Source: an uncultured Geobacteraceae bacterium
GTDB lineage: Bacteria > Desulfobacterota > Desulfuromonadia > Geobacterales > Geobacteraceae
Direction of reading: 5' to 3'
Assembly: GCA_964434465.1 (NCBI GenBank)
Contig: CAYSWG010000003.1
Span: 1 to 33,653 of the forward strand
Length of the DNA: 33,653 nucleotides
Made by a program: the position numbers and the translations under genes
The notes under the pieces: model-generated
What the model was told of the DNA's origin: nothing
Databases searched by the model: none
Seen by the model: only the letters and a program-made list of their open reading frames with translations
Part shown: positions 3 to 29,924 of the stretch, one piece after another
Numbering within the stretch: the first letter of the stretch is position 1
How the letters are laid out: each line of letters begins with the position of its first letter

Positions 3-1172
3 CGGGCATTGCTCAGCACTGCAGCTGATTGTTTTTTTGCCCGGAATGAGACCACCCGTATGGAAGAGTTCTGGAACTTTTGTGACACCACCCCCTGGCT
101 CGACGATTTTGCCTTGTTCATGGCCCTGAAGGATCGTTTCCCTGCCGGCAGCTGGCGGAACTGGCCGGCTGAGCTTGCTGCCGGTCACGAGGGAGCCAAG
201 GACGAGGCCGCCCGGGATCTTGGTCCGGTCATCGGCGCCGTCAAATATGAACAATGGCAGTTTTTTCGTCAGTGGCGGCGGCTCAGGGAGTACGCCGGGA
301 GCCGGAATGTGGAGATCTTTGGCGATATGCCCATTTTTGTTGCTTACGACTCTGCCGATGTCTGGGCCAATCGCCGGCTTTTCCTCCTCGATCATACGGG
401 CAACCCTACGGTCGTTGCCGGAGTTCCTCCAGATTATTTCAGTAAAACCGGACAGTTGTGGGGTAATCCCCTCTATGACTGGGAAGCAGTTGCCAAGGAA
501 GGCTATGCCTGGTGGATAGATCGGGTGCGGGCGTCCCTGGAATTGTATGACCTGCTGCGCATCGATCATTTTCGCGGCTTTGCCGCGTGCTGGCAGGTGC
601 CGGCCGGTGAAAAGACTGCCGTTAACGGTCGTTGGGTCACCGGTCCGGGTGATGGTCTGTTTGCTTCCCTTGCTGCCGCTCTCGGTTCATTGCCCCTTGT
701 TGCGGAAGATTTGGGGGTGATCACGCCCGACGTGGAAGCGTTGCGTGACCAGTTTGCTTTTCCCGGCATGAAAATACTGCAGTTTGCCTTTGATTCCGGA
801 CCGGATAACCCCTATCTGCCCCATAACTTTGTCCGAAATGCCGTGGTCTATACCGGCACCCACGACAATGACACGACGGCGGGTTGGTTTGCTTCCCTGT
901 CATCCCGCGGTCGGAACAGGGTGCTCAACTACCTGGGTTGCAGTGATGGGAACATTGTCGAGGAACTGATCCGGTTGGCCGTGGCCTCCGTGGCCGATAC
1001 GGTAATACTGCCGTTGCAGGACGTGCTTGGTTTGTCTGGTGCGGCACGCATGAACGTGCCCGGTTCTCCCGTCGGCAACTGGTCATGGCGCTGCCCCCCG
1101 AATCATCTGCAGGCCAAAACGTTCAAGCGTTTGCATGGGTTGACCGAACTGTACGGAAGGTGTTCCCGGTAG
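3..1172 (+). CDS. malQ: 4-alpha-glucanotransferase (amylomaltase, GH77), 5' truncated by window edge
   Basis: The frame is open to the window edge, so the ORF-track 'M' at 9 is an internal TTG. GH77 motifs are present: 'LLRIDHFRGF', 'WGNPLYDW', 'VVYTGTHDNDT', 'LPLQDVLG'. Stop at 1170-1172. Confidence 0.85.
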   Translation, partial: RALLSTAADCFFARNETTRMEEFWNFCDTTPWLDDFALFMALKDRFPAGSWRNWPAELAAGHEGAKDEAARDLGPVIGAVKYEQWQFFRQWRRLREYAGSRNVEIFGDMPIFVAYDSADVWANRRLFLLDHTGNPTVVAGVPPDYFSKTGQLWGNPLYDWEAVAKEGYAWWIDRVRASLELYDLLRIDHFRGFAACWQVPAGEKTAVNGRWVTGPGDGLFASLAAALGSLPLVAEDLGVITPDVEALRDQFAFPGMKILQFAFDSGPDNPYLPHNFVRNAVVYTGTHDNDTTAGWFASLSSRGRNRVLNYLGCSDGNIVEELIRLAVASVADTVILPLQDVLGLSGAARMNVPGSPVGNWSWRCPPNHLQAKTFKRLHGLTELYGRCSR

Positions 1173-1211
1173 CTCCTCGGCCGGTGTTACCGGGTAGAAA
1201 CCAAATAGTTG

Positions 1212-1241
1212 TTGACACGAAAACTGGTAATTGGGTAGTGT
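1212..1241 (+). promoter_or_regulatory. possible sigma-70 promoter for metY
   Basis: TTGACA (1212-1217), 18-nt spacer, TAGTGT (1236-1241), about 60 nt upstream of the metY ATG. Pattern match only. Confidence 0.3.
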
Positions 1242-1301
1242 TCTGGCAGAGATTTACCATTACATTACTCGGATAATCCTCTTGTGAAAGGAGAATACCT
1301 G

Positions 1302-2588
1302 ATGGCCGATCAGAAGTACGACCTGGATACCCTGGCGCTCCATGCCGGACACACACCCGACTCGGCAACCCTGTCCCGGGCCGTGCCCATTTACCAGACC
1401 TCTTCATACGTGTTCCGCAGTTCTGAGCATGCGGCAAAGCTGTTTGCCCTGGAGGAACCGGGCAATATCTACACGCGGATCATGAATCCGACAACGGATG
1501 TGCTGGAAAAGCGCATGGCGGAGCTTGATGGCGGAGTAGGCGCTCTGGCGGTGGCGTCCGGCCAGGCGGCGATTACTTTTGCCGTACTCAACATCACCCG
1601 GGTCGGACAGAATATCGTATCCACCAACTCCCTCTACGGTGGAACCTACAATCTTTTCCACTATACGCTGCCCAAGCTGGGCATCCAGGTGAAATTCGTC
1701 GACAGTTCCGACCCGGAAAACGTTCGCCGGGCCATCGACGACAGGACGCGGCTGGTCTATACGGAGTCGGTCGGCAATCCGAAAAACAATGTGGACGACT
1801 TCGAGGCACTCGCCTGCATTGCCCATGATGCCGGAATTCCCTTTATCGTGGACAATACGGTGACAACACCGTACCTGTTCCGCCCCCTGGAACACGGCGC
1901 CGATATCGTCGTCTACTCCCTGACCAAGTTCATCGGCGGCCACGGCACCAGCATCGGCGGCTGCGTTGTCGATGGCGGCACCTTTCCCTGGAACAACGGC
2001 AGGTTTCCCGAGTTCACCGAGCCGGATCCTTCCTACCATGGAATCCGTTTCTGGGAGGCTCTGGGCAATCTTTCCTACATCGTCAAGATGCGCGTGGAAC
2101 TCCTCCGCGACCTGGGGGCGCCTCTGTCGCCGTTCAATGCCTTCCAGCTCCTGCAGGGCCTGGAAACGCTCCACGTGCGCATGCCCCGTCATGTGGAAAA
2201 TGCCGGGAAGATCGCCGAATGGCTTGAAAAGCACCCCCTGGTCACCTGGGTCAATTACCCCGGTCTGGCCAGCCACAGGGATTTTGCGCGGGCACAGCGC
2301 TATCTGGGCAAAGGTGCCGGCGCCATCATCGGGTTCGGTATCAATGGTGGGGTGGCTGCCGGAAAAAAATTCATCGACAATGTCAAACTTCTGTCCCATC
2401 TTGCCAATATCGGCGATGCCAAATCCCTGGTGATCCATCCGGCATCCACGACCCACCAGCAACTCACCGAGGAGGAACAGATTGCCACCGGTGTCACGGC
2501 CGATTTCATCAGGCTGTCGGTGGGCATTGAGAATGCGGATGATCTGGTTGCCGATATTGAGCAGGCATTGCAGGCTTCCCAGGTCTGA
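1302..2588 (+). CDS. metY: O-acetylhomoserine sulfhydrylase (PLP-dependent Cys/Met metabolism family)
   Basis: Contains 'TLALHAG' and the PLP-lysine motif '[16 protein letters not shown]', with length about 428 aa. AAAGGAG (1287-1293) lies 8 nt before ATG 1302. The ORF-track GTG at 1284 overlaps that SD and is rejected as the start. Confidence 0.9.
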
Positions 2589-2613
2589 CGACGCTATGCC
2601 GCTGCTGCACCAG

Positions 2614-2644
2614 GGCGACCTCTCCAGGGGGGTCGCCTTTTTTT
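2614..2644 (+). terminator. rho-independent terminator after metY
   Basis: Stem GGCGACC (2614-2620) pairs with GGTCGCC (2631-2637), followed by a T7 run (2638-2644). Confidence 0.8.
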
Positions 2645-2680
2645 GTGGGCGATGCCCGTAACTTTAATTAGAAAATGAAT

Positions 2681-2707
2681 TCAAGTTTTTTTCCAGCCCG
2701 CCGATGA
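2681..2707 (+). promoter_or_regulatory. sigma-28 (FliA)-type promoter upstream of MCP gene
   Basis: TCAAGTTT (2681-2688), N11, GCCGATGA (2700-2707), against the enterobacterial FliA consensus TAAAGTTT-N11-GCCGATAA. It sits about 125 nt upstream of the MCP start. Confidence 0.65.
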
Positions 2708-2833
2708 GATAGCCAGAAGCAGCGAATGGCGTTTCAGGTCGGGAAGAGTTCCCCGACTGTTATCGTTGTGCCAGACAACGCGTTACTGATTATAACCGGC
2801 AACGGGCGACTTTCGGGGAAAAGGAGAAGAATC

Positions 2834-4465
2834 ATGTTATTTGCAAAGATGCGGATTGGTTTGAAAATGGGGTTGGTGTTTGGATTCATCCTGTTCATGA
2901 TGGCTTTGATGATCTACTTCGGTATCAGCAGCATCGGCAAAATGGAGGGATCACTGGAAGGTATCGTCAACGGCGAGTATCGGAAAACCGTCCATGCCGC
3001 CGGGGCTACGCAGTCCCTTGACCAACTGATGATCGGCATGCAGAGCCTTATCATGGTCAGTAGTCATGCGGCGGTGGAACAGCAGAAGGCGGCCATCCTG
3101 ACAGCCCGCGGGGAATATCGCGAGAATATCAAAAAGCTCGAGGCATTGGAAAGAGACCCCCAGGGGATCAAGCTGATTGATTCCTTCAAGGCTGTTGCTG
3201 CCACTGCTGCCCAGGTCAACAACCGGGTCATCGACCTGGCCCTGGCTGGCAAGAAGGATGAGGCCTCCTCCCTGTTAAACCAGGAGGCGGCGCCGTTGAC
3301 GAAAAAGGCCCAGCAGACCTTGAATACTCTCAAGGGTTTACAGGAGGCAAACGTCAAAACAGCCTACGACCGGGCGGAGTCCCTCTACCGGAACCTGCGG
3401 ATCTTCATGCTGCTGGCCGGGGCGATTGCCTTTATCCTCGGCCTGGCCGGGGCCATATTCCTTATTCACAATTTTGTCACGCGGCTTCGCAGGGTGACCG
3501 CTGCTGTGGGGCGCGTTGCCGACGGTGACTTGTCCACCAAGCTGAAAATCTATGCCAAGGATGAAATCGGCGATCTTGGCCACGCCATTAACCGTATGCT
3601 CGATTCCGTGCATAGTGTCGTTTCCACCATCAAAATTACCGCCGATCAGGTGGCAACCGCGTCGAACCAGCTGTCGCAGACTGCCGAACAGATGGCGACC
3701 GGCGCCGAGGAGGTGGCGGCCCAGGCCGGTACGGTTGCCGTGGCCAGCGAAGAAATGTCAGCCACCAGCAACGACATAGCCCAGAACTGCCACATGTCGG
3801 CGGAAAGTGCCGGCCAGGTGACGGAAACCACGAAGAAGGGTTTCCAGGTGGTGCAGCACACGGTCAACGGCATTCGCAGTCGCGGCGAGCGGACCAAAGA
3901 GAATGCCAGGATCGTGGCCAGTCTTGGCGAGCGTTCTGATCAGATCGGCGCCATTGTGTCCACCATCGAAGATATTGCCGACCAGACCAACCTTCTGGCG
4001 CTTAATGCGGCCATTGAAGCGGCCCGGGCAGGTGAGCAGGGCAGGGGGTTTGCCGTAGTCGCCGACGAAGTGCGGGCACTGGCCGAGCGGACCACCAAGG
4101 CGACCAAGGAAATCGGTGAAATGATCCGCTCCATTCAGAGTGAGACGAAAACGGCCATCGTTTCCATGGAAGAGGGGGTGCGGGGCACGGAGCAGGGGGC
4201 CCAGGATGCTGCCCAGCTGGAGACGTCACTTCAGGAGATACTTGATCAGGTCAGCTCGGTAACCATGCAGATCAGCCAGATTGCCACTGCGGCGGAGCAG
4301 CAGACCTCGACCACCAGTGAGATTACCAATAATATTCAGCAGATCACCGAGGTTGTTGCAGATACGGCCAGGGGCTCCCAGGAGTCGGCTGCTGCGGCAA
4401 CACAGCTTTCACGTCTGGCAGAAGAACTGCAGCGGGTTGTGGAAACATTCAGGCTTGCATCCTAG
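2834..4465 (+). CDS. methyl-accepting chemotaxis protein (N-terminal TM, helical periplasmic sensor, TM2, HAMP, MA signalling domain)
   Basis: Conserved MCP hairpin '[42 protein letters not shown]' and HAMP-like '[25 protein letters not shown]'. AAGGAGAAG SD (2821-2829) precedes ATG 2834. The ORF-track start at 2726 lacks an SD and adds a non-MCP-like leader. Confidence 0.9.
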
Positions 4466-4496: not shown

Positions 4497-4527
4497 GCGG
4501 GCTGTCCATCGGGGCAGCCCGCTTTTT
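4497..4527 (+). terminator. rho-independent terminator after MCP gene (in convergent gap with selU)
   Basis: Stem GCGGGCTG (4497-4504) pairs with CAGCCCGC (4515-4522), followed by T5 (4523-4527). Confidence 0.7.
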
Positions 4528-5573
4528 CAGGAGTGGCAGGCGGAATGGCCTGATTGCTGCTCGTGGATAAACTTTTCCAATTCGGCAACGGCTGACGGGA
4601 AGCTCTCAAGAGATATCTGCCGGTCTTCCTGCCAGCTTCTCGTCTTGTAGTAGACCCGGTCGTAGTAGTTTTTCAGCAAACCGGCCATGAACGGCCCCAG
4701 GTTCCACCGCTCAAGGTGCTCGGTCAACTCCCGGTTGGTTGTACTGCCCAGTTTTTTACTGATTCGCCCCAGGGCGGCAGCCATGCCTTCCCGGTACTCT
4801 TCCTTGCCGTATTCAGTGATAAGTCGTGCGACTCTGGTTTCCAGGGACGCATCACACCAGATTTTGATTCCCTCCCGCATTACTTCATAGAGATTACCCG
4901 GAAGGGAAAGGGCACCTATCCGGCGGCTCTCTCCTTCAATAATAATCGGTTGCCCGGCCGGGCAGATGCGAAAGGCTTGCCAGAGGAGACTTTCAAACTT
5001 CTTCTGGTCCAGTGATTGATTGAGACCCAGTGAGCCGAAGGCAGAACCGCGGTGACGGGCAAGGCCCTCCAGGTCGACGGCGGCATGACCCCGTTCCGCG
5101 AGCTGGTGCAGTAGGGTTGTCTTGCCGACGCCGGTCAGACCGTGGAGGACAATCAGCGGTCCAGGGGGCTGAAAGGGTGAAAAGTATGTCGCTACCCGAT
5201 TCCGGTAGGCCTTGTAACCGCCGGTCAATTGGATTGCCCGGTGGCCGGTCAGTTCCAGGATGGCGGTAACGGTTTTGCTGCGCAGACCACCGCGCCAGCA
5301 GTAGACGAGTACCGGTCTGCCGTCGGCGTGATCGACAATTGCGGTCACAATGGCCGGAAATCGTCCGGAGGTCAATTCAAGGCCCCGTTGTCGTGCCGCG
5401 AGGGGGCCGTCCTTCTTATGGATGATGCCGATGACGATGCGCTCTTCGTTGGAGAGGAGTGGCACGTTTACGGCACCGGGAATATGATCTTCCCCGTACT
5501 CGAGGGGGGTGCGGACATCAACGGTCAGGTGGGTGTCCAGCAGGGATTCACAAAACTGGGTTGTCTCAACCAC
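4527..5573 (-). CDS. selU: tRNA 2-selenouridine synthase (rhodanese domain plus P-loop)
   Basis: Rhodanese active-site 'YCWRGGLRS', P-loop 'GLTGVGKTTLL', and 'DLEGLARHRGSAFG' identical to the E. coli SelU (YbbB) motif as I recall it. GTG start at 5573 is preceded by GGAGA 5 nt upstream. Confidence 0.85.
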   Translation of the reverse strand: MVETTQFCESLLDTHLTVDVRTPLEYGEDHIPGAVNVPLLSNEERIVIGIIHKKDGPLAARQRGLELTSGRFPAIVTAIVDHADGRPVLVYCWRGGLRSKTVTAILELTGHRAIQLTGGYKAYRNRVATYFSPFQPPGPLIVLHGLTGVGKTTLLHQLAERGHAAVDLEGLARHRGSAFGSLGLNQSLDQKKFESLLWQAFRICPAGQPIIIEGESRRIGALSLPGNLYEVMREGIKIWCDASLETRVARLITEYGKEEYREGMAAALGRISKKLGSTTNRELTEHLERWNLGPFMAGLLKNYYDRVYYKTRSWQEDRQISLESFPSAVAELEKFIHEQQSGHSACHS

Positions 5574-5666
5574 ACTATTCTCCGGACCAGCAGGTTTGTT
5601 ACCGTACCCGTACGGCAGGGAGGGTGATGCGCATCAGTCCTGATAGGGTAGACTTGATCTGGACAG

Positions 5667-8600
5667 ATGCAGATTCAGTTCGATGATATTTCACGCTCTC
5701 CGGACGTGTCTATGAACGACAAGTCACCATTAACACAAGCGCACGACCTGCGCAATGCAATCCATGTCGTGCCGGTTGCGGAGGTGTTTCCGCTGCTGGG
5801 CAGCAGCCCCACCGGCTTGACGAAGGATGAGGTGGTAGATCGTCGAAGGCGGTATGGAGTCAACCGCCTCCACCCGATACGGGAAAAATCATTGTTCGTC
5901 AGGTTTCTGGCAGCCATCACCCATTTGATGGCCATACTGCTCTGGTGCGGGGGCGGCATCGCCTTTGTCGCCGGACTTTCCCAGTTGGGCTGGGCAATCT
6001 GGGCCGTTGTCCTGGTCAATGGCGCGTTCTCATTCTGGCAGGAGTATCGGGCGGGCAAAGCCATGGAAGCGCTGCGCGGCATGTTGCCGCCGACGGCCCG
6101 GGTGGTGCGTGATGGCAGGGAACAGCGTGTTCCCGCCGTCGAATTGGTACCCGGAGACCAGATTACCGTTATGGAGGGCGAAAGGATTTCCGCAGATTGC
6201 CGGCTCGTGGTGGAGGCCGAGTTGCGAGTCGATCAGTCTGCCCTGAGTGGCGAGAGCCATCCGCTGCGTAAAACGGCGGAAGCGCTCACGACCCCTGACA
6301 GTTTCGGTGACGATTGTGCCAATCTGATCTATGCCGGCACTACGGTCACCAGTGGTACGGGCAGGGCAGTGGTCTATGCAACGGGTATGACCACCCGGTT
6401 CGGGACGATAGCCGACCTGACCATGGGCCTGCCCGAGGAGCTGAGCCCTCTGCAGAAGGAAATCAACAGGATGACGACGGTGGTGAGCGTTCTTGCCGTC
6501 AGTATCGGTATTGTCTTTTTTCTGCTGTCTGTGCTTGTCCTGCATCGTCCGGTGAGTGCCGGGTTCATGTTTTCTTTGGGGATGGTAGTCGCCTTTGTAC
6601 CTGAAGGGCTGCTGCCCACGGTAACGCTTGCCCTGGCCATGGGCGTGCAGCGCATGGCCAGGCGCAATGCACTCATCAAGAAATTATCTTCCGTTGAAAC
6701 CCTTGGCTGCTGCTCGGTTATCTGCACGGACAAGACCGGCACGCTTACCCAGAACGAGATGACCGTGCGAAGCCTGTGGGTTTCCGGACGCTCCATCATG
6801 GTGAGCGGAACTGGATATGACCCGACGGGTCAGTTGCTGGAAGATGGCCGGGTTCTTGCCACTATCTCGCCGGCGTCAGACTTGGACCTGCTCTTGCGGG
6901 CCATGGTTCTCTGTAACGATGCACGGCTTGTTCCCCCTGAGGCGGACGGCGACCCATGGCGGGTTCTCGGCGATCCAACCGAAGCAGCCTTGCTGGTTGC
7001 TGCGGGGAAGGGAGGCATGGATTTCGGGCAGTTGGCCCGGGAACTGCCCCGCCGCCGTGAACTACCTTTTGACTCTCGCCGCAAGCGGATGAGCACGATT
7101 CACTCGCTCGAGGTGCAGGGCAGTTCGCTGGAGACCGTTACGGGAACAAACGGAGCTGTCGGTTTCCTTGTCTTTGTGAAAGGGGCACCGAAAGAGATCC
7201 TTGATCTCTGTGAGACTGCACGACGCGCCGGGACAACGCGGATTCTTACTGACGCTGAGCGTCTGGAGATCGTCCGCGTAACGGACAGTCATGCCGCCGC
7301 CGGCATGCGGGTTCTTGCCATGGCCATGCGGTTCCTGCCGACGGATCATGACCGTTTCACCAGTGATGCGGTCGAACGGCAGCTGATATTTCTCGGGTTG
7401 GCCGCCATGCTCGACCCGCCCCGGGATGAGGTGGCTGCAGCGGTGGCAACCTGCCGACGGGCAGGTATCCGCATCATCATGATAACCGGCGACTATGGGC
7501 TTACCGCGGAAAGCATCGCACGACGGATCGGCATTGTCGGTGTTGAGCGGCCCCTGTTACTGTCCGGTCGGGATCTGGACGGAATGGATGATTCCTCCTT
7601 GGAGCAGGCCTTACAGGGCGAGGTGCTCTTCGCCCGGGTAGCACCGGAGCACAAGTTGCGCGTTGTCGGCACCCTCCAGGGCATGGGACATGTGGTGGCC
7701 GTAACCGGCGACGGCGTCAATGACGCGCCAGCCCTGAAAAAAGCCGATATCGGTGTGGCAATGGGCAACACCGGCACCGATGTGGCCCGGGAGACGGCTG
7801 ACATGGTGCTGGACGACGACAACTTCTCCTCGATTGTTCATGCAATTGAGGAAGGGCGCGCCGTCTATGCGAATATCAGGAAATTCGTCACCTACATTTT
7901 TTCCAGCAACATGCCGGAAGCCTGGCCGTTCATTCTTCAATTGCTGTTCGGTATGCCTCTTGCCCTGAATGTCATGCAGATTCTGGCCATTGATCTGGGG
8001 ACGGACATGGTCCCGGCCCTTGCCCTGGGGGCGGAGCGTCCAGAACCCGGAATCATGGACAGGCCGCCCCGCAGTCGCCGTGAGCGGCTCATTGACGGCC
8101 CCTTGCTGGTCCGTTCACTGCTCTGGCTGGGGACCTTGCAGACGGTGCTTTGCTTCACCGCTTTTTTTGCACTTTATGCCCTGTTCGGCTATCACGATCC
8201 ATTCAATTTGCCGCGAGTCGATCTGCTGCCCTTTGCCGAGCGCCTCACGAGCCGCGAGGGGTATGTCTACGCCCTCGCGTCGACGCTGTTTTTTACTGCG
8301 GTTATTGCCACACAGATCGGCAATGCTTACGCGTGCCGCACTGACCGGACCTCGGTCTTTTCCGTTGGCTTGTTCAGCAACCGCTTTCTTCTTGCCGGGA
8401 TACTGGTAGAATTGGTGCTAGCCGTCCTTCTTATCCATGTTCGATGTTTGCGGCAGCTCTTCGGGTTTGTTCCCTTGCCGACAGGCATCTGGCTGCCGTT
8501 GCTCATCGTGCCGCCGCTGCTCCTGGCCGCTGAAGAATTGCGCAAGGCTGGTGTCCGATGGCTGATGCGGCGACGGGATGCTCCGGGAGGAGTTCCATGA
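5667..8600 (+). CDS. cation-transporting P-type ATPase, type II, with Na,K/H,K-ATPase-like (P2C-like) ion-site motifs
   Basis: Motifs: 'LSGESHP' (TGES-type), 'ICTDKTGTLTQNEM' (phospho-Asp), 'MITGDYGLTA', 'VTGDGVNDAPALKKADIGVAMG'. TM4 is 'FVPEGLLPTVTLAL', TM5 is 'YIFSSNMPE', TM6 is 'ILAIDLGTDMVPALALGAE'. The start is uncertain: ATG 5667 or ATG 5712, neither with a clear SD. Confidence 0.9.
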   Translation: MQIQFDDISRSPDVSMNDKSPLTQAHDLRNAIHVVPVAEVFPLLGSSPTGLTKDEVVDRRRRYGVNRLHPIREKSLFVRFLAAITHLMAILLWCGGGIAFVAGLSQLGWAIWAVVLVNGAFSFWQEYRAGKAMEALRGMLPPTARVVRDGREQRVPAVELVPGDQITVMEGERISADCRLVVEAELRVDQSALSGESHPLRKTAEALTTPDSFGDDCANLIYAGTTVTSGTGRAVVYATGMTTRFGTIADLTMGLPEELSPLQKEINRMTTVVSVLAVSIGIVFFLLSVLVLHRPVSAGFMFSLGMVVAFVPEGLLPTVTLALAMGVQRMARRNALIKKLSSVETLGCCSVICTDKTGTLTQNEMTVRSLWVSGRSIMVSGTGYDPTGQLLEDGRVLATISPASDLDLLLRAMVLCNDARLVPPEADGDPWRVLGDPTEAALLVAAGKGGMDFGQLARELPRRRELPFDSRRKRMSTIHSLEVQGSSLETVTGTNGAVGFLVFVKGAPKEILDLCETARRAGTTRILTDAERLEIVRVTDSHAAAGMRVLAMAMRFLPTDHDRFTSDAVERQLIFLGLAAMLDPPRDEVAAAVATCRRAGIRIIMITGDYGLTAESIARRIGIVGVERPLLLSGRDLDGMDDSSLEQALQGEVLFARVAPEHKLRVVGTLQGMGHVVAVTGDGVNDAPALKKADIGVAMGNTGTDVARETADMVLDDDNFSSIVHAIEEGRAVYANIRKFVTYIFSSNMPEAWPFILQLLFGMPLALNVMQILAIDLGTDMVPALALGAERPEPGIMDRPPRSRRERLIDGPLLVRSLLWLGTLQTVLCFTAFFALYALFGYHDPFNLPRVDLLPFAERLTSREGYVYALASTLFFTAVIATQIGNAYACRTDRTSVFSVGLFSNRFLLAGILVELVLAVLLIHVRCLRQLFGFVPLPTGIWLPLLIVPPLLLAAEELRKAGVRWLMRRRDAPGGVP

Positions 8601-9247
8601 AACTGGTGATTGTCGGCTGTGGCCGCATGGGTGCGGCTTTGGCCCACGCCGTGCTCCGGCGCGGCCACGGGGTTACGGTCATCGACCGCGATTCCGCGTC
8701 TTTTGTCCGTCTGTCACCCTGCTTCAGCGGCGAGACCATTACCGGTATCGGTTTTGACCGGGAGGTGTTGCTGCGTGCTGGTATCGAGCGTGTAGACGGC
8801 TTGGCGGCGCTGACGGACAGCGATGAAGTGAATCTGGTAACCGCCCGTGTCGCCAAACTGTTTTTCCGGGTGCCCAAGGTTGTGGCCCGACTCCATGATC
8901 CACGAAAGGCAGAGATTTATCGCCGACTTGGCGTGCAGTCTATTTCACAGGTAACCTGGGGGGTCAACCGCGCCGTGGAAATTCTTTGTTACGCCCATCT
9001 GGAAACCTTGCTCAGTGTCGGGAATGGTGAGGTTGATATTGTCGAGTCGGAAGTGCCCCATCTGCTGGTCGGTCGTCCGGTCTGTGAACTGACCGTACCG
9101 GGTGAAGTGACCGTTATTGCCATAACCCGCCATGGTCGGACCGTTATTCCCACCCTCGGCACCCTTCTGCAGGCTGACGATCTGGTTCACCTGGCACTTT
9201 TGGCAGCATCGGGTGATCGACTCAAGGCGTTGCTCGGCCTCCATTAG
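8597..9247 (+). CDS. RCK-domain protein (TrkA_N Rossmann plus RCK_C), TrkA/KtrA-like, soluble
   Basis: 'MKLVIVGCGRMGAALAHAVL' GxGxxG NAD-fold, about 217 aa as for KtrA-type proteins. ATG 8597 overlaps the ATPase TGA (ATGA, 8597-8600). The ORF-track start at 8558 lies inside the ATPase gene. Confidence 0.85.
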   Translation: MKLVIVGCGRMGAALAHAVLRRGHGVTVIDRDSASFVRLSPCFSGETITGIGFDREVLLRAGIERVDGLAALTDSDEVNLVTARVAKLFFRVPKVVARLHDPRKAEIYRRLGVQSISQVTWGVNRAVEILCYAHLETLLSVGNGEVDIVESEVPHLLVGRPVCELTVPGEVTVIAITRHGRTVIPTLGTLLQADDLVHLALLAASGDRLKALLGLH

Positions 9248-9321
9248 TCCACTGGGCCGTTCCCGGCTTTTGCCGGGTTAGATTGGCTGGTCGTGACAAG
9301 GGAGCGTGGGGGAAAGAAGCC

Positions 9322-10014
9322 ATGAATATACTGATTGTCGGCGGTGGCAAGGTGGGTACCTCTCTGGCCGGCCTCTTGTTGGCCGGTGACGCCGCGGTGA
9401 CTGTTATCGAGGCGAATGCCGCAGTGGCCTCCCGTCTGCAGCAGGTACTGCCCGCCGACAGCATTCTGTCGGGCAGCGGTTCCGATCCGGTCGTTCTTGA
9501 AAAGGCCGGCATCCGCAAGACGGATGTGGTCGCTGCGGTTACCGGTGATGACGAGACCAATCTGGTGGTTGCCGGTTTGGCCCGTTTCGAGTTTTCCGTA
9601 CGTCGGATCATCGCCCGGGTCAATCACCCTGCCAACTCCTGGATGTTTACCCGGGAGATGGGCGTCGATGTGGCCCTCAATCAGGCCGACCTGCTGGCGC
9701 ACTTGATACTCGAGGAACTCTCCGTCGGCGAAATGATGACCCTGTTCAAACTGCGCAAGGGCGCCTATGTGCTGGTGGATGAAAAAGTGCATCCCCGTTC
9801 CTCTGCCGCCGGCAAGACCATTGCCTCACTGGCGCTTCCTGCCGAAAGTGTTATCACTGCCATAATCAGGAATGGCAGTTTGCTCATTCCCCGTGGCGAC
9901 CATGTGCTGTTGGCCGAGGACGAGGTGCTCGCCCTGGTGCACTCTGCCCGACTTGCTCAACTTGCCCAGGTGCTTGGGCCGGATGGGCACGATAGCGGGG
10001 GCGGTCAACCTTGA
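9322..10014 (+). CDS. second RCK-domain protein (TrkA_N plus RCK_C), TrkA/KtrA-like, soluble
   Basis: 'MNILIVGGGKVGTSLAGLL' GxGxxG, with a C-terminal RCK_C-like half ('ESVITAIIRNGSLLIPRGDHVLLAEDEVL'). A purine-rich GGGGGAAAGAAG stretch precedes ATG 9322. Confidence 0.85.
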   Translation: MNILIVGGGKVGTSLAGLLLAGDAAVTVIEANAAVASRLQQVLPADSILSGSGSDPVVLEKAGIRKTDVVAAVTGDDETNLVVAGLARFEFSVRRIIARVNHPANSWMFTREMGVDVALNQADLLAHLILEELSVGEMMTLFKLRKGAYVLVDEKVHPRSSAAGKTIASLALPAESVITAIIRNGSLLIPRGDHVLLAEDEVLALVHSARLAQLAQVLGPDGHDSGGGQP

Positions 10015-10123
10015 ATTGTCCCAAGTGACATGCTATACAGACTGGGAAGCGTAATGGCCGGTTTGGATCATGCGGCAACCGGATGTCCGGAAAAATTAAG
10101 CTGAAAACAAGGAGGCATCACCC

Positions 10124-11419
10124 ATGAGTACCCCGTGTTGCGGCTATGAGGCCGATTTTGTCAAGGCGTTGGCCATTGGCCGCCCGCCGAATATTGTGAA
10201 ACTGTTTCCACACTCCAGGGCGCTGTTGGTGAGCGGCAAAGCGATAGACCGGGCCATGCTTGCCAAGGGCAAGTCCATGGCCATAGCCGCCAACGGCCGG
10301 AATACCTTCATCATCCGCGGTGTGCTGCGGGCTGCCCAGCGGGCCAACGCTGCAGTCATCATCGAAATTGCCAAGTCGGAAGGGGGCGCCAAGGCCTATT
10401 GTCCGGTCAATTACTGGAACATGGCACTCCACGTGGATGCCATATGCAATGAACTGGGCATAACGGTACCGGTTGCCATCCATGCGGATCATTACGGCAT
10501 CAAAAATGACAAGGATCTCGTTGCTGCCCGGATTGAGGTGCCTTCCATGTTCGATGCGGGCATCACCTCCATTGCCATTGACGCATCCCATCTTCCCGAT
10601 GACCGCAACCTTCTGGCGAGCATTGCATTGAGTCCCTTTGTGCCGGGCTGGTCCGGCCTTGAAACCGAGGTCGGCGAGATAAAAGGCAAAGATGGTTTGT
10701 CCACGGTTGAAGATGCCCTGTTCGTGATCCAGGGTCTGAATGCCAACGGGATCTTTCCTGACTGGATCGCCCTCAACAATGGCACGACCCATGGTATTGA
10801 AGCCAGCGGCCAGGGAATCCAGGTGGGGTTGACCGCGGAGATCCATGGGGCGTTGCAACCCTATGGGCTTTCCGGCGCCCAGCATGGCACGTCCGGCAAT
10901 AGTTCGGAACGGCTCAGGGACATCGTGACCAGGACCAGAACCACCAAGGCCAATGTGGCAACGGCTCTGCAGATGGTGGCCTGGGGGCTGCGGGTGAATG
11001 ATTACGGTAATGCCATTCTCGATGACCAAGGTCGTTTCATCAAGGAGTCCGACAAGGGGATGGACGATGCCCTGTGGGCGGAGATTGTTGCGGTAGCTGA
11101 TTCCAGAGGGTACAAACCCGGAGATTACAAGAACTTCAATCTCCTCTTCGACAATCGCCTTCTTTCCCAGCCGCGGGAGTTCCGTGAGCGGATGGTTGCT
11201 GATGTGGAACGGTTCGCCTATACCATGATGACGGAGGTGTTCAACGCCGCAGACACGGCGCCCCTGGCACTAGAAGCGCTCCTTGCCGCCGGAAGTTACG
11301 ACCTGGGGGCCAAGTCGGCAAGGATTGAAGACCCTGCCGAATGGACCCCGGAAAAGATTGTTGCCCGGGCGGCGTTGCTGACTTCCGATAAAGGTCCGGC
11401 CGGGGACTTCGATGACTAG
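10124..11419 (+). CDS. fba: class II fructose-1,6-bisphosphate aldolase (long form, 431 aa)
   Basis: Zn/catalytic motifs 'IHADHYG', 'IAIDASH', 'LNNGTTHG', 'AQHGTSG'. AAGGAGG SD lies 8 nt before the ATG. Confidence 0.8.
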   Translation: MSTPCCGYEADFVKALAIGRPPNIVKLFPHSRALLVSGKAIDRAMLAKGKSMAIAANGRNTFIIRGVLRAAQRANAAVIIEIAKSEGGAKAYCPVNYWNMALHVDAICNELGITVPVAIHADHYGIKNDKDLVAARIEVPSMFDAGITSIAIDASHLPDDRNLLASIALSPFVPGWSGLETEVGEIKGKDGLSTVEDALFVIQGLNANGIFPDWIALNNGTTHGIEASGQGIQVGLTAEIHGALQPYGLSGAQHGTSGNSSERLRDIVTRTRTTKANVATALQMVAWGLRVNDYGNAILDDQGRFIKESDKGMDDALWAEIVAVADSRGYKPGDYKNFNLLFDNRLLSQPREFRERMVADVERFAYTMMTEVFNAADTAPLALEALLAAGSYDLGAKSARIEDPAEWTPEKIVARAALLTSDKGPAGDFDD

Positions 11420-12745: not shown

Positions 12746-12826
12746 GGATCTCGTGAACTGCTCCGTTATGCTCCGGCCGGATGTGGGGAGTTCGGAAAAC
12801 ATCCTATTCAGAATAAGGTGGGTGCC

Positions 12827-14872
12827 ATGGTTAAGAATCTCAGTATCCGGGTGAAGATCGCTGCAGCCGTTTTGACCGTTATGGTGTTCATGGTGGTTAT
12901 CGGTGGTATTGCGGTCTGGAAATTATCGGTTGCTTCGTCTGTTGCTGATCACATGGGCAGCAATCTCATGCCCGGGGTGGCGACCCTTGCCCAAATTGGC
13001 ACAACCGTAGATACCTATCGCCGTTCCGAGTTGCAGTTGTTGTTGGAAAACACACCCGAGGAGTTCCTCCGTTATCGGCAGCGTATGGAGCGCATGGAGT
13101 CTGCGCTGCGTTCCGCAAGCACCGCACTGGGGGGGTTCCACCTGACGGGTGCCGAACAAAAGTCCTTTGCCAGGTTACAAACGGCATGGTCCGAGTACAC
13201 CCGTTCTGCCCAAACTGTCCTTGGCCTGATTGCTGCGGGCAATGTCCATGCTGCTCAGGTGCAGGCTCGCACAGAGGGCAAAGCCCTCTACGATGCGGTC
13301 ACCACTCTTTTGACTGACCTGCGAACTTCCCGCCAGCAGGGCGCCGACGCGGCTGCCGCTCTGGTTCGGGACGCGGCGGCATCGGCTCGACTCTGGATTG
13401 CTGCGTTGATCGGTGCTGGTGTGCTTGTTGGTCTGCTGGTGGCGGTGCAGGCGGCGCGGGCAATTGCCGTCCCGCTCAGGCAGTTGGCCAGGGATGCGGA
13501 TCAGGTGGCAACGGGCGATCTGAATGTGGCCATCACCGTTGCGTCCCGCGATGAAGTCGGCCAGTTGGCTGGATCATTCGAGGTCATGGTCAACAGTCTG
13601 CGGGAACTGATCGGTACCCTTGCCGACTCGTCGTCGGAAGTACTCAAATCTTCGGAGGGAATGCGTTCCAATGCCGAGATGATGACTGATGGTGCCGAGC
13701 AGGTGGCTGAGCAGGCAATAACCGTCGCCACTGCCAGTGAGGAAATGTCCGCGACCGCCGCAGACATTGCCAGAAATTGTTCTCTGGCGGCGGAAAGTGC
13801 CGGCCGGGCCAACGAATCTGCCAACAAGGGTGCAATTGTCGTTGAGAATTCCATTGCGGCCATGCACCGCATTGCTGATCGGGTCAAAAACTCGGCGATT
13901 ACGGTGGAGGAACTGGGCCGGCAGAGCGAACGGATTGGTTCAATTGTCGGGACCATTGAGGATATTGCCGACCAGACCAACCTGTTGGCGCTCAATGCCG
14001 CAATTGAAGCAGCCCGTGCCGGCGAACAGGGACGTGGATTTGCCGTGGTGGCCGACGAAGTGCGGGCACTGGCTGATCGGACTACCAAGGCAACAAGGGA
14101 AATAGGCCAGATGATCTCCGTAATACAGCAGAATACCAGTTCGGCCGTTGCATTAATGGTTTCCGGAGTAGAAGAGGTTGAGCTTGGTACCCGGGAAATT
14201 GCCGGTTCAGGGGATGCCCTGCGCATGATCCAGGATGAAATCACCACGGTCAATGAGCAGATGCAGCAGATTGCCACGGCAGCCGAGGAGCAGACGGCAA
14301 CCACCAGTGAAATCAGTGGGAATCTGTATCGTATTAACGATGTGGTAGGCCTGACCGTAGAAAAGGCCCGTGATACGTCCCGTTCCGCACACCATCTGAC
14401 CCGTCTGTCCGATGAGTTGCGGCGGATTGTCGGTCAGTTCAGCCTTGACCAGTCGGGGAAGCTCATACACTGGAGTCTCAGTTACAGTGTTGACGTGGCT
14501 GCCATGGATGCGGAGCACCAGCGGCTGATAGACATCATCAATTCACTGTACGGCGCCATGCGGGAAGGACGCGGAACGGATTCCCTGGCCGGTATCCTTG
14601 ACGAACTGGTAAGCTACACCCGCACCCACTTCAGTCACGAGGAGCAGTTGATGCAGCAGGCGGGTTATCCGGACTATGACGCCCAGAAGGCAGCCCACGA
14701 GACACTCGTTGCGCGGCTCATGGAGATCCGCGAGAAGTTTGTCTCAGGAACCGCCTTGAGTCAGGAGGTCATGACCTTCCTCAAGGGGTGGCTTATCGGC
14801 CACATTCAGGGTATGGACAAGAAGTATGGTCCCCACCTGAACCGCAAGGGGCTTGGCAGGCAGGCGGCATAA
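12827..14872 (+). CDS. methyl-accepting chemotaxis protein with C-terminal hemerythrin-like domain (DcrH-like)
   Basis: N-terminal TM, helical sensor, TM2, HAMP ('[25 protein letters not shown]') and MA hairpin '[42 protein letters not shown]'. The C-terminal ~135 aa carry hemerythrin ligand-type motifs 'IHWS', '[11 protein letters not shown]', 'HFSHEEQLM', 'AHETLV', '[13 protein letters not shown]'. AAGGTG SD precedes ATG 12827. Confidence 0.9.
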
Positions 14873-20091: not shown

Positions 20092-21011
20092 ATGGACGTT
20101 TCATATGCACGATTGCGATTCACATTGCGCCTGGAGGCGCCCGTCGCCGACCCTTTTGCCCTTTTTGTTCTCAAGGGTAGTTTTCCGTCAGCGTTCCGCT
20201 CGGTCGTTTGCCCTGATCCTTCTTTCTGCAGGGGCTGCAGCGACCAGGAGTCGTGCCCGTATCATGCCACGTTCAGCCAGGCGCTTGCCCCGGATCCCGA
20301 GGCGGTGCGGCGTCACCAGAAACCCTCACTGCCCTTTGTCTTCCAGATACCTGTTCTTCCTGTTGTCAGGCCGGCGAGGTTTTTTCCTTCGAACTGGTAG
20401 TGCTTGGAACCGCTGTTTACCATGCAGCGGTCTATTGCAAAGTTCTTATCACCATGTTCGACGGCTGGTATCAATCACTGAATCTGCCCGCCAGACTGAT
20501 AAGGATTGATTCTGTCGGTTGTTCACAGTGCCTCCTGCAGATCTACGGGGAAGGTGTTCCGACGCTTCTGGAGCAGTTTGCTATTGGAACACTTCATGAT
20601 CTTCTCGCTCTGCACACCCTCGCCCCTGACCGGGTCAATATTCTGCTCAAGACGCCTCTGCGCTGCGTTTCTTCCGGTCACCTGCTTAGAGAATTTTCTT
20701 TTTCTCCCTTTATCCGGAGTCTGCTGCGCCGGGTTTCCTCTCTTGCCTATTACTATTGCGGAGCGGTGCTTCCCCTTGATTACCCATTTCTTGCTTCAGC
20801 AAGCACTTCAGTGGTGTCGGTTGCAAATTCAGTTCGGTGGCACCATGCTTCTTCGGGCGGCGTTGACGGTCTGCGAGGCAACGTTTCCTTGCAAGGTGAC
20901 CTGACGGAGTTTTACCCGGTACTTCTCATGGGAGAACTGGTTAACTGTGGCAAAGATGCGCCCTATGGCCGTGGACAATTTCTTCTTGCGCCAGCAGCAG
21001 GTGGCGATTAA
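20092..21011 (+). pseudogene. Cas6/RAMP-like protein (DUF2276 / Cas6 C-terminal-type family as recalled), split by a frameshift, with no CRISPR array nearby
   Basis: Two overlapping ORFs, 20092-20400 (frame 1) and 20253-21011 (frame 3), read as one ~305-aa protein if one nt is restored near 20365-20385. N-terminus 'YARLRFTLRLEAP...LKGSF...VC...CRGC...CPY', then 'PFVFQIP', 'LLKTPLRCVSSG', and a C-terminal Gly-rich RAMP loop 'VNCGKDAPYGRGQFLL'. Confidence 0.55.
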
Positions 21012-22195: not shown

Positions 22196-22270
22196 AGGCG
22201 CGTAGCTCAGGGGTAGAGCACTAGCTCGACACGCTAGGGGTCGGCGGTTCGAAACCGCCCGCGCCTACCA
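22196..22270 (+). tRNA. tRNA-Val (anticodon GAC), encoded CCA, with an unusual C at position 33
   Basis: Hand-folded cloverleaf. Acceptor AGGCGCG/CGCGCCT, D arm GCTC-AGGGGTA-GAGC, anticodon arm CTAGC-TCGACAC-GCTAG, variable GGGTC, T arm GGCGG-TTCGAAA-CCGCC, then A-CCA. Confidence 0.85.
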
Positions 22271-25007: not shown

Positions 25008-25095
25008 TATGCGGATACTGTCCGCTTCAAGTCCGTGAACCGTGAGGAACAGTCTCCCCTTGCGGATCCGGCAAAATACCGACAAGGAGTAGAAG

Positions 25096-29845: not shown

Positions 29846-29924
<79 letters not shown>

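Follow-up and report, generated by a model that had tools for sequence, protein, structure and literature searches.

A Na,K-ATPase-like P-type ATPase encoded with two stand-alone RCK proteins in a conserved three-gene unit of bacteria

A compact three-gene unit lies on contig CAYSWG010000003.1 of an uncultured Geobacteraceae bacterium (GenBank assembly GCA_964434465.1), within a stretch of 33,653 nucleotides (positions 1 to 33,653, forward strand) that is called the window below. The unit encodes a P-type ATPase resembling the alpha subunit of the animal Na,K- and H,K-ATPases, followed by two small proteins of the RCK (TrkA/KtrA-like) type, here named RCK1 and RCK2. An earlier note, made from the sequence alone, had pointed out this arrangement and had proposed that the RCK pair may form a regulatory ring for a primary K+ (or Na+/K+) pump. 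Our analysis confirms the three-gene arrangement and supports the interpretation placed on it. The locus is laid out as follows:

4527-5573, minus strand: rhodanese/AAA SelU-like gene, divergent from the pump (left flank)
5574-5711, no strand assigned: divergent intergenic region between the SelU-like gene and the pump; an operon promoter is presumed here from position only
5712-8600, plus strand: P2-type (Na,K/H,K-ATPase-like, beta-less) P-type ATPase, 962 amino acids
8597-8600, plus strand: ATGA overlap of the pump TGA stop and the RCK1 ATG (translational coupling), read from the sequence ('ccATGAaa')
8597-9247, plus strand: RCK1, stand-alone RCK protein of 216 amino acids, TrkA_N and TrkA_C (Pfam)
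9322-10014, plus strand: RCK2, stand-alone RCK protein of 230 amino acids, TrkA_N and TrkA_C (Pfam)
10124-11419: class II fructose-bisphosphate aldolase (right flank)

The open reading frame (ORF) of the pump spans 5667-8600 on the plus strand and would code for 977 amino acids from an alternative, upstream ATG at 5667; gene callers and homologues choose M16, at position 5712, as the start, which gives 962 amino acids. The overlap of the pump stop with the RCK1 start can be read directly at 8597-8600, as the earlier note had reported, and the flanking genes are, as it had said, unrelated to the unit. The spacing of RCK1 and RCK2 is 74 nucleotides and not 75, and a Shine-Dalgarno-like run, GGGGGAAAG, lies ahead of the RCK2 start. 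A scan of 5400-10300 for consensus promoters and terminators returned weak, uninformative sigma-70-like matches and no clear promoter or terminator, and Rfam detected no cyclic di-AMP (c-di-AMP), Mg2+ or Na+ riboswitch near the pump in the window or in six Firmicute/Coriobacteriia loci. No small hydrophobic, single-pass accessory ORF (beta, FXYD or KdpF-like) was found around the operon. The ORFs of at least 150 amino acids in the 33.6-kb window include no match to TrkH or KtrB, in agreement with the earlier remark that the RCK proteins lack such a partner there.

The pump contains the five Pfam domains of P-type ATPases (Cation_ATPase_N, E1-E2_ATPase, Cation_ATPase, Hydrolase and Cation_ATPase_C) and, in the 962-residue numbering, the catalytic motifs SGES at 179, DKTGT at 340, TGD at 592 and GDGVND at 666. 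Its top NCBIfam model is TIGR01106 (ATPase-IIC_X-K), at 588.9 bits against a cut-off of 946.1; the PMR1-type model TIGR01522 (577.4 bits, cut-off 798.3) and the SERCA-type model TIGR01116 (545.7 bits, cut-off 703.4) are likewise missed. A phmmer search of the PDB ranks the non-gastric H,K-ATPase first (515 bits), followed by Na,K-ATPase alpha (about 490-504), SERCA (477), SPCA (464) and LMCA1 (461). Judged by the curated thresholds, none of which it reaches, the pump falls outside every named subfamily. Its place is in a large prokaryotic family that lacks a beta subunit and is sister to the animal Na,K/H,K-ATPase alpha subunit.

For the ion sites, the pump was aligned by HMMER to the SPWC mutant of the non-gastric H,K-ATPase (7X23), and 86 related pumps were aligned with MAFFT. 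All the ligands of K+ sites I and II of the Na,K-ATPase are found in the pump, namely Glu327 in transmembrane helix 4 (TM4), Ser775, Asn776 and Glu779 in TM5, and Asp804 and Asp808 in TM6 (Na,K-ATPase numbering, here and below). The earlier claim that the cation ligands of these three helices are conserved therefore stands for all six residues in both alignments, and the helix strings on which it was based, VAFVPEGLLPTVTLAL, YIFSSNMPEAWPF and ILAIDLGTDMVPALALGAE, are all present in the pump translation. Tyr771, Pro778, Thr807, Gln923, Cys930 and Glu954 are also kept, TM6 carries IDLGTDMVPA, ten residues identical to the animal pump, and TM4 reads PEGLLxTVT, as in the Na,K-ATPase. SERCA has the Ca2+ ligands Asn796 in TM6 and Glu908 in TM8; the pump has Asp and Gln at the corresponding positions.

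The determinants of Na+ site III are different in the pump, where Ile replaces Trp924 and Asn replaces Asp926. Neither Trp nor Asp occurs at the respective positions in any of 81 pumps; Asn is the commonest residue at the Asp926 position, and one RCK-linked pump has Glu. The Asp926 position corresponds to N911 of SERCA, and Asn stands there in both the pump and SERCA. The SYGQ motif of the TM7-TM8 loop, which is associated with the beta subunit, is missing as well, with 'PFAE' opposite it in a shorter loop in the 7X23 alignment. This agrees with prokaryotic Na,K-ATPase-like sequences noted earlier, which were reported to be without the SYGQ motif (PMC9609216). Because the family cut-off is missed and Trp924, Asp926 and SYGQ are absent, the pump is Na,K-ATPase-like and not a Na,K-ATPase. 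The resemblance to the P2C class to which the earlier note had pointed holds for the best PDB and NCBIfam matches and for the site I and II ligands, but not for the cut-off, site III or SYGQ.

These residues bear on what the pump may transport. Na+ site III is built by Ser775, Pro778, Trp924 and Cys930 together with an un-neutralised Asp926, and a pump that has the Ser but not site III occludes two K+ and can be activated by Na+ or by H+ (PMC9463140). The pump has no Lys or Arg 'built-in counter-ion' at the Ser775 position, so a counter-transported cation would be needed. With sites I and II kept and the Na+-only site III not, the pump is most likely a two-site pump that imports K+ in exchange for Na+ or H+, and the exchange is probably two for two and electroneutral. 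The same ligand set is present in a large prokaryotic family with or without RCK genes, including members from Nitrospira, Calothrix, Halobacteria and Methanococcoides. In the actinobacterial RCK-linked pumps the set varies: L042, L046 and L047 (L numbers denote our loci), like the RCK-less L049, have His at the Ser775 position, which is Lys in H,K-ATPases, and Gly or Ser at the Glu954 position. The residues hint at an ion specificity or stoichiometry in the actinobacterial RCK-linked clade that differs from that of the main clade.

Both small proteins contain TrkA_N and TrkA_C above the Pfam gathering scores, as the earlier note had predicted, with E-values of 9e-25 and 1e-7 in RCK1 and of 1e-24 and 1e-11 in RCK2. 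In a PDB search the match of RCK1 to Vibrio TrkA covers residues 1-213 of the latter and that of RCK2 residues 234-436, and both proteins also match the two-subunit TrkA of Thermotoga, TM1088A/B. The two proteins are 34% identical to each other. Neither reaches the TrkA equivalog models of NCBIfam (PRK09496 series; 107.5 bits for RCK1 and 142.9 for RCK2, cut-off 293), and each covers only half of these models. The Rossmann motif is kept across orthologues, as GCGRMG...VIDRD in RCK1, where the acidic residue is Asp, and as GGGKVG...VIE in RCK2, where it is Glu. Given these conserved canonical motifs, an adenine nucleotide or NAD(H) is the default expectation for the ligand. The RCK_C signature for c-di-AMP, (I/L)(I/L)xxDxRxxxxxN(I/L)(I/L) (PMC10117811), was not seen by eye in either protein. 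By analogy with known two-subunit TrkA proteins, RCK1 and RCK2 possibly form an octameric (4+4) nucleotide-binding ring. RCK1 orthologues are 60-76% identical and 213-220 amino acids long, almost all of them 216, and they are as constrained as the pump.

The unit recurs far beyond the Geobacteraceae. In a forward test, one genome per species was scanned with the pump alignment, which gave 80 loci, and all ORFs at these loci were searched with the three window proteins. RCK1 and then RCK2 lie directly downstream of the pump on the same strand at 17 of the 18 assessable loci in which the pump scores above 900 bits (at least 49% identity). These loci belong to Geomonas, Bacillus marasmi, Rokubacteria, Anaerocolumna, Chloroflexaceae, Collinsella (two loci), Coriobacteriaceae, Anaerolineaceae, Olsenella, Thermoleophilia, Bacillota, Nitriliruptoraceae and Clostridiaceae, with L001, L003 and L004 in addition; the single exception is L022. 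The RCK pair is also found beside a separate actinobacterial pump clade (Streptomyces, Streptosporangiaceae and an Actinomycetota metagenome-assembled genome, MAG), and RCK-linked pumps occupy three places in a neighbour-joining tree of the pumps. The trio is present in Bipolaricaulota, Methylomirabilia and betaproteobacterial MAGs as well, and further loci that were looked up agree with it in seven of seven cases.

The association holds equally when it is approached from the RCK side. All four RCK1 orthologues that lie on long contigs are preceded by the pump and followed by RCK2. A scan of metagenomes with the RCK1 alignment gave another 80 loci, and here the pump lies upstream of RCK1 at 51 of the 68 assessable loci, including all those with RCK1 above 190 bits, and RCK2 lies downstream at all 74 assessable loci. 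The adjacency, which the earlier note had wished to see checked in related genomes, is thus strongly conserved, whether the search starts from the pump or from the RCK genes. A 4-nucleotide overlap of the pump stop codon with the RCK1 start codon occurs in 12 of 24 distinct related loci, and the gaps between RCK1 and RCK2 in related loci are mostly about 10 nucleotides. Distance matrices correlate at 0.82 for pump and RCK1, 0.74 for pump and RCK2 and 0.89 for RCK1 and RCK2, values that none of 2000 permutations equalled and that include any contribution of the species phylogeny, for which they are not controlled. The pump, RCK1 and RCK2 are co-inherited. In the 27 pump-linked loci examined for neighbouring genes, the 4-8 kb around the trio contain no TrkH, and the flanking genes differ between loci, with two-component systems alone recurring. 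Some metagenome loci carry two or more RCK1/RCK2-like pairs in succession: L129 has a second RCK1/RCK2-like pair (6416-7471) after the pump-linked pair, and L141 has five RCK genes in a row (78-3497).

The RCK-linked pumps were also compared with RCK-less ones. Four positions of the N-domain, R405, P409, E495 and D525, were considered as a signature of RCK-linked pumps and rejected, because the RCK-less close relatives L049, L026, L018, L022 and L054 share them, which marks them as phylogenetic signal. The C-terminal tails of the pumps do not distinguish the two groups either.

Several neighbouring and related systems place the unit in the context of K+ homeostasis. The 17 metagenome loci that have an RCK pair and no pump are more distant and high in GC, and at least 11 of them (L138, L145, L157, L159-L161, L163 and L165-L168) adjoin a permease of the APC superfamily of 600-750 amino acids (AA_permease_2; one weak KUP match), which lies either downstream on the same strand or divergently upstream. 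This combination resembles a KimA-type K+ transporter and the CeoB/CeoC 'Trk' of Mycobacterium tuberculosis (PMC13163235; PMC10117811), and the adjacency suggests that CeoB/CeoC-type 'Trk' systems of high-GC bacteria pair with a KimA-like permease and not with TrkH. Pump-linked and permease-linked pairs interleave in a neighbour-joining tree of RCK1, computed without support values, and this interleaving suggests partner switching.

Where RCK genes are lacking, in a sister clade of pumps (Omnitrophota L018, Brocadiaceae L022 and Desulfobaccia L031), a PTS_EIIA_2 domain of the PtsN/EIIA-Ntr-like type is instead fused to the N terminus of the pump in a single ORF (L018, 7449-10751; L022, 2152-5355; L031, 3200-6382). 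The PtsN-type histidine motif GIGNGVA(F/I)PHA is present in L018 and L022 and degenerate in L031. We know of no description of a P-type ATPase fused to EIIA. In Escherichia coli, EIIA-Ntr binds and regulates TrkA and KdpD (Lee 2007 and Luttmann 2009, cited in PMC9239096). Components of the Kdp type also occur next to the operon itself: a full-length KdpD-type kinase lies directly downstream of it in L086 (6511-9222), and a DUF4118 histidine kinase lies upstream of it in Collinsella L013 (5298-6929). A kdp operon beside the Streptomyces copy, L042, was not confirmed. Taken together, the permease-linked RCK pairs, the EIIA fusions and the KdpD-type kinases make K+ the most likely substrate and indicate that post-translational control by cytoplasmic sensors is a recurring theme of this pump family.

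Other genes near individual members of the family include membrane pyrophosphatases (H_PPase), which adjoin the operon in L087 (6413-8560) and L088 (6415-8406), and three tandem Usp genes upstream of the operon in L003 (3180-5987). A Nitratiruptor MAG encodes an ORF of 1306 amino acids (L085, 1226-5146) in which a Na_H_Exchanger (CPA) domain (residues 19-393) is N-terminal to a complete P2-type ATPase with SERCA-like ligands, so that a secondary antiporter and a primary pump are joined in one polypeptide.

The reading that we favour, by a little over an even chance, is that of an ATP-driven K+ uptake pump, exchanging K+ for Na+ or H+, that is regulated by a nucleotide-sensing split-TrkA assembly encoded in the same operon. 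The three genes would form one operon for a regulated ATP-driven monovalent-cation pump that works without a beta subunit and imports K+ against Na+ or H+. RCK1 and RCK2 would form a TrkA-like heteromeric cytoplasmic assembly, possibly 4+4, that binds an adenine nucleotide (ATP/ADP or NAD(H)), and the assembly may contact the cytoplasmic domains of the pump and gate its turnover. The pump would then be switched on or off according to the energy or ion state of the cell, much as TrkA or KtrA acts on TrkH or KtrB. Physical contact between the RCK proteins and the pump is what we infer from this arrangement. The broader idea that a heteromeric RCK (split-TrkA) assembly docks onto and gates a P-type pump, as a portable regulator that in evolution came to serve three unrelated architectures of K+ transporter (TrkH, APC/KimA-like permeases and the Na,K-ATPase-like pump), with EIIA taking the same slot in the sister clade, we hold to be about as probable as its opposite.

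A number of observations count against the regulated K+ pump. The P2C models and structures are favoured over those of SERCA and PMR1 only slightly (589 against 577 bits in NCBIfam; 515 against 477 in the PDB), and public sources (JGI) name homologues 'Ca2+-transporting ATPase' or 'magnesium-transporting ATPase'. Most pumps of the wider family that have the same ligands, such as those of Nitrospira, cyanobacteria and archaea, have no RCK genes, which means that the pump can work without RCK proteins. No residue set particular to RCK-linked pumps was found, and a query made of the pump C terminus and RCK1 recovered no pump-RCK fusion, its top 120 matches all being stand-alone RCK1 orthologues of 213-240 amino acids. 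P-type ATPases are usually monomers, and the docking of an octameric ring onto one is hard to picture. Finally, E. coli trkA and trkH are unlinked, so a distal partner is conceivable even where no TrkH lies next to the unit.

This last point leads to the most serious alternative, which we consider unlikely but not negligible, that the RCK pair is an ordinary two-subunit TrkA for a distal TrkH, KtrB or other K+ transporter and is only co-transcribed with a Na+- or H+-extruding pump, which would bring K+ uptake and Na+/H+ export under joint expression with no RCK-pump contact. RCK1 and RCK2 do align to the halves of TrkA and to TM1088A/B, their orthologues are publicly named 'trk system potassium uptake protein TrkA', and the lack of a pump-RCK fusion is what such an alternative would lead one to expect. 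Two-subunit TrkA rings that serve TrkH are known, but the one in question, from Thermotoga maritima, does adjoin its TrkH (PMC4380455). The pump, on the other hand, is the sole constant membrane-protein neighbour of the pair, in several phyla and in three pump lineages, often with overlapping stop and start codons, and RCK distances track pump distances. In addition, the closest pump-less RCK relatives stand beside APC permeases and not TrkH, and the RCK lineage seems to follow whichever transporter adjoins it. What speaks against the distal-partner explanation is that no neighbour other than the pump is constant and that this RCK lineage also occurs beside other transporters that are not TrkH.

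It is improbable that the pump is instead a divalent-cation (Ca2+ or Mg2+) ATPase of the P2A or P3B type, with RCK proteins that regulate something unrelated to K+ pumping. The JGI names, the closeness of the PMR1 (577) and SERCA (546) scores to the IIC score (589 bits) in NCBIfam and the Asn at the position of Asp926, where SERCA has N911, are all in its favour. However, no curated Ca2+ or Mg2+ model is reached at its cut-off, TM4 is of the Na,K-ATPase type, and the partners and neighbours are all components of K+ homeostasis (RCK proteins, PtsN-type EIIA and KdpD-like kinases). It is above all the residues of TM6 and TM8 that disfavour a Ca2+ or Mg2+ pump, since Asp stands at position 804, where SERCA has Asn796, and Gln stands in TM8 in place of the SERCA Ca2+ ligand Glu908. 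The possibility raised in the earlier note, that the pump might prove to be an ordinary Ca2+ or Mg2+ pump, is accordingly not upheld: the best matches are P2C, and the SERCA-type Asn796 and Glu908 are lacking.

That the adjacency of pump and RCK genes is a chance or lineage-specific accident, for which nothing speaks except that the flanking genes vary between genomes, is refuted by its recurrence across many phyla, in fixed order and with overlapping codons, at 51 metagenome loci and at no fewer than 27 loci from genomes or long contigs.

The regulated K+ pump can be compared with several known systems. With animal Na,K- and H,K-ATPase alpha (P2C) the pump shares the ten-helix P2 architecture, the catalytic motifs, the site I and II ligands and Q923, P778 and C930. 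Unlike these, it is prokaryotic, has neither a beta-subunit gene nor SYGQ, has soluble RCK partners, carries Ile and Asn for Trp924 and Asp926, and scores 589 bits against a cut-off of 946. As in the TrkA-TrkH systems and TM1088A/B-TM1089, two adjacent, coupled RCK genes correspond to the halves of TrkA, have GxGxxG sites and lie beside a presumed client transporter. TM1088A/B of T. maritima forms a 4+4 octameric ring, binds AMP and adjoins its TrkH, TM1089 (PMC4380455); here the adjacent membrane protein is a P-type ATPase and not a channel-like TrkH. RCK1 and RCK2 each have an RCK_C lobe, whereas TM1088A has none, and a ring is suggested here by homology.

In the M. tuberculosis 'Trk' system, for which no TrkH has been described, one operon encodes CeoB and CeoC, two homologous TrkA-like proteins that each stand alone (PMC13163235). 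The pump-less pairs closest to RCK1 and RCK2 are high-GC pairs of this kind, but they lie beside the APC/KimA-like permease of 600-750 amino acids, and the partner here is a P-type ATPase. With KdpFABC the unit would have in common an ATP-driven uptake of K+ that is based on a P-type ATPase, and KdpD-type kinases lie beside some copies of the operon. KdpB, however, belongs to the P1A ATPases and depends on the channel-like KdpA (PMC6255902), in contrast to the single P2-type subunit described here, which has its own K+ sites of the Na,K-ATPase type and whose accessory proteins are soluble RCK regulators.

The rest of the window consists of chromosomal housekeeping genes, among them malQ-like and Cys/Met PLP enzyme genes, two genes for methyl-accepting chemotaxis proteins, tgt, sdh/frd, thrS and pheST. 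One of the chemotaxis proteins (12818-14872, plus strand) has a C-terminal hemerythrin domain and is a possible O2- or iron-sensing chemoreceptor; the second is encoded at 2726-4465. A 252-amino-acid ORF at 20253-21011 (plus strand), between the succinate dehydrogenase/fumarate reductase genes and a heptosyltransferase gene, contains a CRISPR_Cas6 domain (Pfam, E = 6e-11), and there is no further cas gene among the large ORFs. Rfam places an L20-Deltaproteobacteria ribosomal-protein leader upstream of pheS (25031-25089, plus strand) and two tRNAs at 22196-22267 and 29848-29921.

RCK proteins regulate channels, channel-like transporters and antiporters, and for P-type ATPases the known means of regulation are their own terminal domains, small membrane peptides and phosphorylation. 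The earlier note knew of no described example of the pump-RCK arrangement, and our full-text searches of the literature likewise turned up no paper that links an RCK/TrkA protein to a P2-type ATPase; the pairing is also absent from a review of open questions in the P-type ATPase field. The regulator family and the pump superfamily are both known, and what is new is their pairing, which is widespread and conserved. If the proposed regulation is true, the pairing would widen the range of RCK clients by a new class and give P-type pumps a new principle of regulation, and the pump would be the first of the P2-type ATPases to have nucleotide-sensing regulatory subunits as separate proteins. It would also represent a second, widespread ATP-driven K+ uptake system of bacteria besides Kdp, with hosts that include gut Coriobacteriia, Clostridia, relatives of Geobacter, Chloroflexota and Streptomyces. 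The analysis suggests that many gene names in these operons, such as 'TrkA' or 'Ca2+/Mg2+-ATPase', are wrong.

The pump-RCK system also bears on the role of the ancestor of the animal sodium pump. Being simple and free of a beta subunit, it would serve as a bacterial model of how the Na,K-ATPase completes the K+ half of its cycle, and the prokaryotic relatives of the animal pump would by implication be K+-uptake pumps under regulation.

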